Virus record (IMG/VR): IMGVR_UViG_2880406838_000008
Source of the DNA: a virus
Lineage: Duplodnaviria; Heunggongvirae; Uroviricota; Caudoviricetes
DNA length: 41,210 nt
Strand: one strand, 5' to 3'
Below the pieces are notes generated by a model. It was not told the DNA's origin, ran no database searches, and was given only the letters and a program-made list of their open reading frames with translations. Positions 34,008 to 39,571 of the stretch are shown here, one piece after another. The translations under genes and the position numbers were made by a program. How positions within the stretch are numbered: the stretch's first letter is position 1; each line of letters opens with the position of its first letter.

Positions 34008-34196
34008 ATGAAAACGTTATTACCAAACGTTAATACGTCTGAAGGTTGTTTTGAAATTGGTGTCACTATCAGTAACCCTGTATTTACTGAAGATGCCATT
34101 AACAAGAGAAAACAAGAACGGGAGCTATTAAATAAAATATGCATTGTTTCAATGCTGGCTCGTTTACGTCTGATGCCAAAAGGATGTGCACAATGA
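34008..34196 (+). CDS. dicB: cell division inhibitor DicB
   Basis: 62 aa MKTLLPNVNTSEGCFEIGVTISNPVFTEDAINKRKQERELLNKICIVSMLARLRLMPKGCAQ with GAGGA RBS; matches DicB from memory. Confidence 0.85.
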   Translation: MKTLLPNVNTSEGCFEIGVTISNPVFTEDAINKRKQERELLNKICIVSMLARLRLMPKGCAQ

Positions 34197-34327
34197 ATTC
34201 AGCATTTGCGCTTGTTCTGACAGTTTTTCTTGTTTCCGGAGAGCCAGTTGATATTGCAGTCAGTGTTCACAGGACAATGCAGGAGTGTATGACTGCAGCA
34301 ACCGAACAGAAAATTCCCGGTAACTGA
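34193..34327 (+). pseudogene. ydfD: ydfD-like gene truncated by IS629 (5' part)
   Basis: ATG overlaps the dicB stop (ATGA); signal-peptide-like N-terminus; the ORF runs into the IS629 terminus at 34325 and uses the IS TGA as its stop. The missing 3' end is found inverted at 38005-38063. Confidence 0.6.
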
Positions 34328-35634
34328 ACCGCCCCGGAAATCCTGGAGACTAAACTCCCTGAGAAAGAGGTAAACAGGATGACTAAAAATACTCGTTTTT
34401 CCCCCGAAGTCCGTCAGCGGGCGATTCGTATGGTTCTGGAAAGTCAGGATGAATATGACTCACAGTGGGCGGCAATTTGTTCCATTGCCCCAAAGATTGG
34501 CTGTACGCCGGAGACTCTGCGTGTCTGGGTTCGCCAGCATGAGCGGGATACCGGGGGCGGTGATGGTGGGCTCACCAGCGCTGAACGTCAGCGTCTGAAA
34601 GAGCTGGAACGTGAAAATCGTGAACTGCGCCGCAGTAACGATATCCTTCGCCAGGCTTCCGCTTATTTTGCGAAGGCGGAGTTCGACCGCCTCTGGAAAA
34701 AATGATGCCACTGCTGGATAAGCTGCGTGAGCAGTACGGGGTCGGACCGGTATGCAGCGAACTGCATATTGCCCCGTCAACGTATTACCATTGTCAGCAA
34801 CAGCGACATCATCCGGATAAACGCAGTGCCCGTGCGCAGCACGACGACTGGCTGAAGAGAGAGATACAGCGCGTATACGATGAAAATCATCAGGTGTACG
34901 GTGTGCGTAAAGTCTGGCGTCAGTTGTTACGGGAAGGAATCAGGGTGGCCAGATGTACAGTGGCACGTCTCATGGCGGTTATGGGACTTGCCGGTGTTCT
35001 CCGGGGTAAAAAGGTCCGTACGACCATCAGCCGGAAAGCCGTTGCCGCAGGCGACCGCGTAAACCGTCAGTTCGTGGCAGAACGACCTGACCAGCTGTGG
35101 GTGGCTGATTTTACTTACGTCAGCACATGGCAGGGCTTCGTCTATGTGGCGTTTATCATTGATGTGTTTGCCGGATACATCGTGGGGTGGCGGGTCTCAT
35201 CGTCTATGGAAACGACATTCGTGCTGGATGCGCTGGAGCAGGCGTTGTGGGCCCGTCGTCCGTCTGGCACCATCCATCACAGCGATAAAGGCTCTCAGTA
35301 TGTGTCACTGGCCTATACGGAGCGACTAAAAGAAGCCGGATTACTGGCATCAACAGGGAGTACAGGCGACTCGTATGACAACGCGATGGCTGAGAGCATC
35401 AATGGTCTTTACAAAGCGGAGGTAATACACCGTAAGAGCTGGAAAAACCGTGCAGAAGTGGAACTGGCCACACTAACGTGGGTGGACTGGTATAACAATC
35501 GACGATTGCTGGGAAGGCTGGGCCATACTCCTCCGGCAGAAGCAGAAAAAGCTTATTATGCTTCCATCGGAAACGATGATCTGGCAGCCTGAGTTCACAG
35601 ATAAAACACTCTCCAGGAAACCCGGGGCGGTTCA
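34325..35634 (+). mobile_element. IS629: IS629 (IS3 family), copy 1, complete 1310 bp
   Basis: Termini TGAACCGCCCCGG... and ...CCGGGGCGGTTCA; orfA 34379-34705 (108 aa) and orfB 34702-35592 (296 aa, DDE transposase) with an A-run frameshift window at the orfA/orfB overlap. Confidence 0.9.
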
Positions 35635-38004: not shown

Positions 38005-38063
38005 TTAAAGACCTGCCGGGATTTCGATATTATCCTGGTGAATAACTTTATCGACCGGGTAAC
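38005..38063 (-). pseudogene. ydfD: detached 3' fragment of the ydfD-like gene
   Basis: Minus-strand reading from the IS629 end gives YPVDKVIHQDNIEIPAGL-stop, which continues the ydfD-like ORF broken at 34325 if one nucleotide is restored. Confidence 0.5.
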
Positions 38064-39373
38064 TGAACCGCCCCGGGTTTCCTGGAGAGTGTTTTATCTG
38101 TGAACTCAGGCTGCCAGATCATCGTTTCCGATGGAAGCATAATAAGCTTTTTCTGCTTCTGCCGGAGGAGTATGGCCCAGCCTTCCCAGCAATCGTCGAT
38201 TGTTATACCAGTCCACCCACGTTAGTGTGGCCAGTTCCACTTCTGCACGGTTTTTCCAGCTCTTACGGTGTATTACCTCCGCTTTGTAAAGACCATTGAT
38301 GCTCTCAGCCATCGCGTTGTCATACGAGTCGCCTGTACTCCCTGTTGATGCCAGTAATCCGGCTTCTTTTAGTCGCTCCGTATAGGCCAGTGACACATAC
38401 TGAGAGCCTTTATCGCTGTGATGGATGGTGCCAGACGGACGACGGGCCCACAACGCCTGCTCCAGCGCATCCAGCACGAATGTCGTTTCCATAGACGATG
38501 AGACCCGCCACCCCACGATGTATCCGGCAAACACATCAATGATAAACGCCACATAGACGAAGCCCTGCCATGTGCTGACGTAAGTAAAATCAGCCACCCA
38601 CAGCTGGTCAGGTCGTTCTGCCACGAACTGACGGTTTACGCGGTCGCCTGCGGCAACGGCTTTCCGGCTGATGGTCGTACGGACCTTTTTACCCCGGAGA
38701 ACACCGGCAAGTCCCATAACCGCCATGAGACGTGCCACTGTACATCTGGCCACCCTGATTCCTTCCCGTAACAACTGACGCCAGACTTTACGCACACCGT
38801 ACACCTGATGATTTTCATCGTATACGCGCTGTATCTCTCTCTTCAGCCAGTCGTCGTGCTGCGCACGGGCACTGCGTTTATCCGGATGATGTCGCTGTTG
38901 CTGACAATGGTAATACGTTGACGGGGCAATATGCAGTTCGCTGCATACCGGTCCGACCCCGTACTGCTCACGCAGCTTATCCAGCAGTGGCATCATTTTT
39001 TCCAGAGGCGGTCGAACTCCGCCTTCGCAAAATAAGCGGAAGCCTGGCGAAGGATATCGTTACTGCGGCGCAGTTCACGATTTTCACGTTCCAGCTCTTT
39101 CAGACGCTGACGTTCAGCGCTGGTGAGCCCACCATCACCGCCCCCGGTATCCCGCTCATGCTGGCGAACCCAGACACGCAGAGTCTCCGGCGTACAGCCA
39201 ATCTTTGGGGCAATGGAACAAATTGCCGCCCACTGTGAGTCATATTCATCCTGACTTTCCAGAACCATACGAATCGCCCGCTGACGGACTTCGGGGGAAA
39301 AACGAGTATTTTTAGTCATCCTGTTTACCTCTTTCTCAGGGAGTTTAGTCTCCAGGATTTCCGGGGCGGTTCA
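38064..39373 (-). mobile_element. IS629: IS629 (IS3 family), copy 2, complete 1310 bp, inverted relative to copy 1
   Basis: Same termini as copy 1; orfB 38106-38996 and orfA 38993-39319 on the minus strand, translations identical to copy 1. Confidence 0.9.
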
Positions 39374-39571
39374 ATCCCCTGCCCGTGGCGTTACTACAAC
39401 GATCGCGATGTACGCACAATCGTTGAGCTGGGGAAAGCCATAGACTTCGATGCCAGAACGGCTATTCCATTCGAAGGTGAGCGCCATAATGCACTTGATG
39501 ACGCCCGTTACCAGGCAAAATACGTTTCAGTTATCTGGCAAAAACTGATCCCGAGTCAGGCTGATTCTTAA
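39374..39571 (+). pseudogene. detached 3' fragment of the exonuclease gene (contains the third DEDDh motif)
   Basis: Plus-strand ORF IPCPWRYYNDRDVRTIVELGKAIDFDARTAIPFEGERHNALDDARYQAKYVSVIWQKLIPSQADS-stop continues the exonuclease frame that ends ...RQGI at 35635; contains HNALDDA. Confidence 0.65.

Follow-up and report, generated by a model that had tools for sequence, protein, structure and literature searches.

Two identical and oppositely oriented copies of IS629/IS1203 interrupt the ydfD gene and a large exonuclease gene in a lambdoid prophage that lies next to rspB in E. coli O111 str. RM9322. Between them are 2429 bp that run in the opposite direction to the same DNA of this prophage in the O111:H8 sister strain 8B. 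The arrangement most probably arose by insertion of two IS copies and a later homologous recombination between these inverted copies. The window, i.e. the whole stretch of 41,210 nucleotides that was analysed, is the RM9322 prophage with 100% identity. A literature search for the strain gave nothing on this locus.

The IS629/IS1203 copies and their setting

The dicB operon arm of the RM9322 prophage has the gene order dicA, ydfA, DicF, dicB, ydfD, exonuclease, xis and int. Gene order and orientation match the dicB operon of Qin/Rac-type cryptic prophages, in which the DicF RNA, dicB and ydfD (DUF1482) are located upstream of the large exonuclease gene, xis and int, whereas the exonuclease gene of RM9322 is split and partly inverted. 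The features of the region are listed in Table 1.

The first-pass annotation had described two complete and oppositely oriented IS629 copies in this arm, and all of their coordinates were right. As reverse complements the two copies match each other exactly over 1310 bp (1310/1310, 0 mismatches, 100% identity), and a pair of perfect inverted repeats of this length cannot have originated by chance. Both copies start with TGAACCGCCCCGG..., have TG...CA-type ends and the size of about 1310 bp, and carry terminal inverted repeats of 25 nt with 88% complementarity. The 108-aa ORF (orfA) matched Pfam HTH_Tnp_1, and the 296-aa ORF (orfB) matched HTH_21 and rve. The overlapping orfA (HTH) and orfB (DDE/rve) with a -1 programmed frameshift show the organization of the IS3 family, and PGAP labelled the copies as 'IS3-like element IS1203 family transposase, programmed frameshift'. 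They share 99.8-100% identity with IS1203-annotated copies in O111 8B, O157 E32511, O157 1130 and others. The identity between copy 1 and copy 2 was considered as a sign that one derived from the other, and this was rejected since the copies in 8B and O157 E32511 are also 100% identical. IS629 is a copy-out-paste-in element of the IS3 family (bioRxiv 10.1101/2023.06.07.543989).

Table 1. Positions of the IS copies, gene parts and inverted segment in the window of the RM9322 prophage.
Feature	Position	Strand	Description
ydfD (DUF1482) 5' part, truncated	34193-34327	+	ORF, PGAP WP_108988479.1
IS629/IS1203 copy 1	34325-35634	+	1310 bp; IRL at 34325, IRR at 35634
Copy 1 orfA	34379-34705	+	ORF, Pfam
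ALIL frameshift pseudoknot of copy 1	34660-34776		Rfam, 121.5 bits, at the orfA/orfB overlap
Copy 1 orfB	34702-35592	+	ORF, Pfam
GAT	35635-35637		One copy of the exonuclease target duplication (3 bp, ATC), read on the opposite strand
Exonuclease 5' part	35635-37911	-	759/823 codons; PGAP pseudogene
Inverted segment	35635-38063		2429 bp; exonuclease 5' part, ydfD-exonuclease intergenic region and ydfD 3' end; reverse complement collinear with 8B
ydfD 3' end (YPVDKVIHQDNIEIPAGL, then stop)	38005-38063	-	Inverted; abuts IRR of copy 2
IS629/IS1203 copy 2	38064-39373	-	1310 bp; IRR at 38064, IRL at 39373
Exonuclease 3' fragment	39374-39571	+	65 codons and stop, in frame; PGAP pseudogene missing the N-terminus

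Reconstruction of ydfD and the exonuclease gene by comparison with 8B

In strain 8B this prophage is also located at rspB, in an IS-free and uninverted form with intact and co-oriented ydfD (192 bp, 63 aa) and exonuclease (2472 bp, 823 aa) genes. For the in-silico reconstruction, the inverted segment of RM9322 was flipped, both IS copies and one ATC were deleted, and one T was added. The product was the same as 8B over 3379 nt except for one synonymous SNP, and the rebuilt exonuclease was identical in 823/823 aa. The earlier expectation that such a reconstruction would give an uninterrupted exonuclease ORF and a full-length ydfD was borne out, the latter with the one T added, while the exonuclease length of about 824 aa given there should read 823 aa. 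The 823-aa exonuclease of 8B also excludes that the gene natively ends at ...RQGI with 39374-39571 as a separate gene.

The first-pass annotation had further read ydfD as broken at the first IS with its 3' end inverted beside the second, and both parts were seen in the sequence. The 5' part retains 44 of the 63 ancestral codons (34193-34324), and the opening bases of IS copy 1 provide its TGA stop. Compared with 8B, exactly 1 nt, the ancestral T, is missing from the ydfD junction, and no target duplication is present there; this agrees with the earlier description of the junction as one nucleotide short and without a clean duplication, and addition of the T restored the 63-aa ORF. The restored YdfD matched PF07358 in full length (E = 2.1e-26, model positions 1-57 of 57) and is identical to WP_001083273.1 of 8B (63 aa).

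The exonuclease gene is likewise interrupted as had been noted, with the break at the first IS and the 65-codon tail beyond the second. Its 5' part ends with ...SYERQGI, followed by a TGA stop supplied by the IS end at 35634-35632. The 3' fragment opens with the codon ATC, the other copy of the target duplication, and the duplicated Ile is counted in the 65 codons. ATC is present at both exonuclease junctions, in line with the proposed 3-bp target duplication (GAT/ATC), and the ancestral target site in 8B is GGGGATCCCC. Removal of ATC and the IS together with the flip also rebuilt the 18-bp palindrome GGCAGGGGATCCCCTGCC that had been predicted. The restored protein contains a Rv2179c-like domain (PF16473) at residues 642-813 (E = 4e-67, 225.8 bits with a cut-off of 27), which assigns it to the DEDDh 3'-5' exonucleases, and the H-x4-D motif HNALDD of the 3' fragment is located at residue 796. 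In the window this domain is cut at residue 759, and the exonuclease loses the 64 residues at its C-terminus, with the catalytic H-x4-D among them. The inverted segment, with the exonuclease 5' part, is now antisense to the direction of the DicA-controlled DicF/dicB operon, in agreement with the earlier statement that the exonuclease is reversed relative to the early-left operon.

Copy 1 is flanked by ...CCCGGTAAC at its IRL and by GATCCCCTGCCG... at its IRR, and copy 2 by ...ACCGGGTAAC at its IRR and by ATCCCCTGCCCG... at its IRL. The 5' part of ydfD adjoins an IRL and its 3' part an IRR, while the 5' part of the exonuclease gene adjoins an IRR and its 3' part an IRL, with ATC on both exonuclease sides. 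With an IRL at one side of its break and an IRR at the other, each gene carries both ends of a single IS. The same flanks bear on the idea that the two copies and the segment between them were inserted as one block, as a composite transposon. Two identical inverted IS copies around a passenger are what is found in Tn5 and Tn10, but the outer flanks (the 5' half of ydfD and the 3' tail of the exonuclease gene) are 2.4 kb apart in 8B instead of contiguous, the supposed passenger is the native 8B DNA between these flanks in reverse, and no duplication is shared across the outer ends (AAC vs ATC). The comparison with 8B refutes this explanation, and we regard it as having practically no chance of being correct.

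Origin of the inversion

In the favoured account, the RM9322 lineage would have acquired two IS629/IS1203 insertions in opposite orientations, one in ydfD and the other in the 823-aa exonuclease gene. Homologous recombination between the identical inverted 1310-bp copies would then have flipped the 2429-bp segment, and each IS would come to lie between one half of ydfD and one half of the exonuclease gene. Homologous recombination acts readily on inverted repeats of 1.3 kb that are separated by 2.4 kb. IS629 has been tied to deletions, inversions and duplications (PMC8046923), and inversions between inverted repeats are documented in STEC prophages (PMC7430833, PMC9997748). The identical inverted copies, the flipped interval and the exchanged target halves in RM9322 are as in the known IS-mediated inversions of IS629 in E. 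coli O157 and Shigella; in contrast to these, the RM9322 inversion is very small (2.4 kb), lies inside a single prophage, occurs in a single strain of the 5,426 genomes, and involves one insertion without duplication. Two insertions with recombination between the inverted copies, as the first-pass annotation had already suggested, are supported as the simplest reading. We infer the order of the events, and a RecA-type recombination rather than a transposase reaction; the same final structure is expected under all standard models.

Four observations count against this stepwise account, of which the missing intermediates and the palindrome-centre targets are taken up below. The ydfD junction, with -1 nt and no duplication, is not predicted by a simple insertion, and the orientation of the segment rests on one assembly. 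Inverted repeats of 1.3 kb are a classic cause of assembly ambiguity and of reversible flipping, so both insertions could be real with the orientation of the 2.4-kb segment being arbitrary, due to a mis-resolved assembly or to a culture that is a mixture of both, interconverting orientations. The arrangement is found in one record only, as this would allow. However, the genome is closed with about 40 IS copies resolved, which implies long reads that would span 1.3 kb and 2.4 kb, and an arbitrary orientation is very unlikely. The four junction sequences do not change with the orientation, so neither insertion is in question.

Among 5,426 complete E. coli genomes, the ydfD and exonuclease junctions of RM9322 were found in no other genome, and no intermediate with a single insertion or with two uninverted IS copies was found. 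Candidates for insertion at the same sites were rejected. S1-NGR-02-A and others have an IS629-like element 30 nt downstream of the ydfD site with a normal TAA duplication, and O157 E32511 and about 27 other genomes have an IS elsewhere in the exonuclease gene, without the RM9322 junction. A hot spot at the ydfD palindrome was also considered, as exact matches to the 44-aa stub of YdfD and the 65-aa tail of the exonuclease lie at the ends of contigs in many draft assemblies, in differing prophage backgrounds. In the cluster listings, YdfD fragments ranged from 28 to 52 aa and tail fragments from 58 to 66 aa, each on about 5 to 100 contigs. Stubs of so many lengths at contig ends indicate assembly breaks of a general kind in prophage modules that occur in several copies, and because an exact-match look-up selects such breaks, the stub matches were discarded as evidence for a hot spot.

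The ydfD insertion point is the centre of GGTAAC-T-GTTACC, and the exonuclease insertion point is the centre of the 18-bp palindrome described above. Only four strong palindromes occur in the region, and the dyad centres of two of them are the two insertion points. The palindrome arms at 13 other IS629 sites are merely 1-4 nt, and a general palindrome preference of IS629 is unsupported by these sites; the element has been reported to be without sequence specificity, with target duplication at 21/47 sites (PMC3271280). A 3-bp duplication was present at 11/13 of the other copies that we examined. An absent duplication could not be treated as routine, since the two other duplication-free copies are associated with a 333-bp adjacent deletion and with a rearrangement, respectively, and neither is a 1-nt loss. 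The ydfD junction is symmetric about the palindrome centre, with -1 nt instead of +3. The IS3-family elements IS1397, ISKpn1 and ISPsy8 insert at palindrome centres (PMC1525189), and both RM9322 copies are likewise located on dyads, but those elements target the palindromic units of REP/BIME, whereas the RM9322 targets are not REP/BIME. That both targets are palindrome centres, unlike the 13 other sites, hints that the events were possibly not ordinary independent insertions.

Such targets and junctions are among the points in favour of an inversion in one step, in which one IS629 already present in either ydfD or the exonuclease gene would have transposed intramolecularly to a site 2.4 kb away, copying itself and flipping the segment together, either by a Shapiro-type replicative event or through the active IRR-IRL junction of a transient tandem IS dimer. 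The two palindrome-centre targets and the non-canonical ydfD junction suggest a non-routine insertion. The observed topology is exactly predicted by the one-step route, including the inverted GAT/ATC at the two new junctions, and the proximity of the copies, their opposite orientation and the missing intermediates are accounted for with one fewer independent event. Replicative intramolecular inversions are not known as a normal outcome for the IS3 family. Its transposition proceeds by copy-out-paste-in via a free circle (bioRxiv 10.1101/2023.06.07.543989). Replicative inversions of the IS26 and Tn3 types give the same end structure, with a second inverted copy, a flipped segment and an inverted duplication (IS26 examples in PMC4471558 and PMC10501869), but IS629 differs from these as a copy-out-paste-in IS3 element for which a replicative inversion pathway is not established. 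A normal 3-bp duplication is also predicted at the first site, so the -1 nt ydfD junction is equally unexplained by the one-step route. Moreover, recombinational flipping is frequent once two inverted copies exist, so that the stepwise model has no real disadvantage in parsimony. Taken together, the one-step route appears unlikely. We consider it quite improbable that IS629/IS1203 has a structure-directed mode, acting on palindrome or cruciform dyads with non-canonical junctions, and that the inversion was one intramolecular transposase event between such sites. Two insertions with subsequent recombination remain our preferred reading.

Significance for STEC prophages

Since the Q antiterminator is missing from the RM9322 prophage and its portal gene is frameshifted, the inversion has little functional consequence, and the event is probably neutral decay. 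For annotation, three calls in RM9322 that are listed separately as pseudogenes or short genes belong to only two genes, and the four junctions are a strain-specific marker for O111 RM9322. If general, the palindrome-centre targets and the duplication-free ydfD junction would bear on the target choice of IS3-family transposases. IS-mediated inversions are of a well-known kind (PMC8046923), and the RM9322 case is a real strain-specific example. It provides a clean illustration of how IS629/IS1203 erodes and rearranges STEC prophages, with both ancestral genes recoverable to the nucleotide from a sister strain.

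IS629 copies and the genes they divide

The window was read directly from 33900 to 39900 and searched for inverted repeats, which gave one long inverted repeat whose arms are the two IS copies listed in the table. The extracted arms, 1310 bp each, are exact reverse complements with 0 mismatches. Both have the features expected of the IS3 family, with terminal inverted repeats beginning TGAACCGCCCCGG. Both are named 'IS3-like element IS1203 family transposase' in the source record (NCBI annotation) and are 99.8-100% identical to the IS1203/IS629 copies of other STEC genomes; IS629 (isoform IS1203) is therefore the fitting name.

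The flanks of copy 1 are ...AAAATTCCCGGTAAC / IRL...IRR / GATCCCCTGCCGTTCG... and those of the inverted copy 2 are ...ATCGACCGGGTAAC / IRR...IRL / ATCCCCTGCCCGTGG... (IRL and IRR, left and right terminal inverted repeats). All coordinates of the first-pass annotation proved right when checked in the sequence. In gene orientation, IRR bounds the 5' half and IRL the 3' half of the exonuclease gene, with ATC on both sides, while in ydfD IRL bounds the 5' half and IRR the 3' half. Because of this pairing each gene bears both ends of a single IS, and by the order of these ends the two elements would originally have stood in opposite orientation.

YdfD belongs to the DUF1482 proteins. In the restored exonuclease, residues 642-813 form an Rv2179c-like DEDDh 3'-5' exonuclease domain at the C-terminus (E = 4e-67), and the protein is weakly similar to an exodeoxyribonuclease of solved structure (227 aa, 8KEL). 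With its break at residue 759, the IS interrupts this domain and cuts off the H-x4-D motif (HNALDD, residue 796). Since DicF and dicB are on the plus strand, the early operon runs plus and the exonuclease 5' part is now antisense.

Coordinates of the features (window positions unless a locus is named)
Feature	Position	Strand	Remark
IS copy 1	34325-35634	+	
IS copy 2	38064-39373	-	
orfA, 108 aa	each IS copy		HTH_Tnp_1 domain
orfB, 296 aa	each IS copy		overlaps orfA; HTH_21 and rve (DDE) domains
ALIL frameshift pseudoknot	each IS copy		at orfA/orfB overlap
DicF RNA	33782-33833	+	upstream of dicB; Rfam
dicB	34008-34196	+	
ydfD-like ORF, 5' part	starts 34193	+	44 codons; stop TGA supplied by IS end
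ydfD, last 18 codons and stop	38063-38005	-	
Exonuclease, 5' part	37911 to 35635	-	759 codons
Exonuclease, last 65 codons	39374-39571	+	duplicated Ile included
ydfD palindrome halves	34319-34324, 38058-63		
Exonuclease palindrome halves	35635-35643, 39374-39382		
AgvB sRNA	30126-30187	+	Rfam
STnc100 sRNA	30188-30378	-	Rfam
DUF1076 genes	1-2001		
sodC	8064-8591		
Portal gene	17377-19799		frameshifted
IS629-like, S1-NGR-02-A	L005 (its locus) 4899-6208		in ydfD, 30 nt downstream of RM9322 site; target site duplication TAA, within GATAATATC
IS629-like, O157 E32511	L003 (its locus) 3697-5006		mid exonuclease gene
IS629-like, set of cattle strains			~0.55-0.6 kb upstream of RM9322 site

Reconstruction against strain 8B

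In a megablast search the window matched the chromosome of E. coli O111 str. RM9322 (NZ_CP028117.1) at 100% identity, and among the 5,426 complete E. coli genomes compared its arrangement was present in RM9322 only. The window spans an entire lambdoid prophage, which adjoins rspB/rspA. In the O111:H8 strain 8B this prophage occupies the same chromosomal position, and judging from matches and annotation 95NR1 and 95JB1 appear to carry it there as well. In 8B the exonuclease gene (2472 bp, WP_000048302.1) and ydfD (192 bp, WP_001083273.1) are both intact and co-directional with dicB, xis and int.

When the segment was flipped and both IS copies and one ATC were removed in silico, the predicted continuous exonuclease frame was obtained as a single 823-aa ORF (MSKVF...PSQADS), identical to the 8B protein at 823/823 residues, and the palindrome GGCAGGGGATCCCCTGCC was regained at the exonuclease site. 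The gene does not natively end at ...RQGI, since in 8B it runs on, intact. The full-length ydfD that had also been predicted did not close: the junction GGTAAC|GTTACC is out of frame as it stands, and one inserted nucleotide gives a 63-aa ORF. As first noticed, this junction is one nucleotide short and has no duplication, exactly the central T being lost compared with 8B. With T added, the reconstruction showed one difference from 8B in 3379 nt, a synonymous C/T at window 36439 that is the sole difference over the 3.4-kb dicB-xis stretch. The ancestral target sites are GGTAAC-T-GTTACC in ydfD and GGGGATCCCC in the exonuclease gene.

Origin of the inversion and its target sites

Two IS629 elements would have inserted in opposite orientation, one in ydfD and one in the exonuclease gene, and a crossover at any point in their 1310-bp homology would then give exactly the present structure. 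This history of two insertions and recombination is considered quite probable. Crossover between inverted IS copies is the standard route, IS629 has been associated with inversions, deletions and duplications (PMC8046923), and since inverted repeats of 1.3 kb recombine easily, the flip makes the stepwise model hardly less probable. Two one-step transposase events, Shapiro-type intramolecular replicative transposition and the active-junction reaction of a tandem IS dimer, were reasoned on paper; both yield the same four junctions as observed, so the sequence cannot tell the routes apart. The copy-out-paste-in mode of IS629 lowers the prior likelihood of the replicative route, and a one-step event is judged unlikely. 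The small probability left over falls to an ambiguity of assembly or orientation.

Intermediates were sought with 240-nt junction-spanning queries; among complete E. coli genomes the ydfD-5'|IRL and IRL|exo-3' junctions occurred in RM9322 only. IS629-like elements have struck the dicB-ydfD-exonuclease module repeatedly and independently in other strains (table), with insertions at several exonuclease-gene positions in about 27 genomes. Exact look-ups in draft assemblies gave no record of the 759-aa exonuclease stub and placed the 44-aa YdfD stub and 65-aa exonuclease tail at many contig ends. These products were rejected as evidence of IS insertion, because in cluster listings truncated products of many adjacent lengths were similarly frequent, as is the case when assemblies generally break in repeated prophage modules. 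Draft contigs (L018-L031) very often break within ydfD and within the last ~60 exonuclease codons, at many neighbouring positions, so that searching for the exact sequence of a truncated protein can give the false impression of a recurrent insertion site.

At ydfD, a canonical symmetric insertion is expected to give GGTAACTG-IS-CTGTTACC; in the observed junction each flank falls short of this by 2 nt, symmetrically about the dyad. A 3-4-bp duplication was reported at only 21/47 IS629 sites (PMC3271280). Duplications were present at 11 of the 13 other IS629 copies sampled here, and the two that lack one are accounted for by a 333-bp deletion alongside the IS and by a rearrangement, neither a 1-nt loss. 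Most conservatively, the ydfD junction may reflect a small IS-adjacent deletion following normal insertion.

Both insertions lie on palindrome dyads: in ydfD that of GGTAAC-T-GTTACC, and in the exonuclease gene that of GGCAGGGGA|TCCCCTGCC. The 3456-nt ancestral stretch has no more than four perfect palindromes whose arms reach 6 nt or more, and the dyads of two, including the longest, hold the insertions; from the palindrome count, the chance for two random sites is estimated at ~1e-5. Palindromic targets were not seen at the 13 other IS629 sites. IS1397, ISKpn1 and ISPsy8 of the IS3 family target palindromic units (PMC1525189), which provides a family precedent; for IS629, the placement of the insertions on dyads is an observation at n=2.

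IS activity and decay of the prophage

Compared with 8B, the RM9322 prophage is missing 1590 bp at window 30755/30756, spanning part of a replication-region gene, a DUF977 gene and the Q antiterminator. Since the Q-containing stretch is absent, the prophage is defective irrespective of the inversion. Its portal gene is frameshifted; it also has three DUF1076 genes in tandem (assigned to the NleG type by Pfam in related loci) and a sodC gene between tail genes. In 8B, an IS1203 with a 3-bp duplication lies inside ydaT/ydfX (8B locus L002, 9072-10381; window equivalent 31684-31686). RM9322 lacks this element and its ydaT is intact; each sister strain has its own private IS insertions in this prophage.

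The IS629-bracketed inversion is confirmed as first observed, and its interpretation is supported by the reconstruction against 8B. A literature search found no paper on the RM9322 inversion; the type of rearrangement is known, and the strain-private instance in RM9322 is new. The inversion is probably neutral, and the prophage is decaying via IS activity in both RM9322 and 8B.
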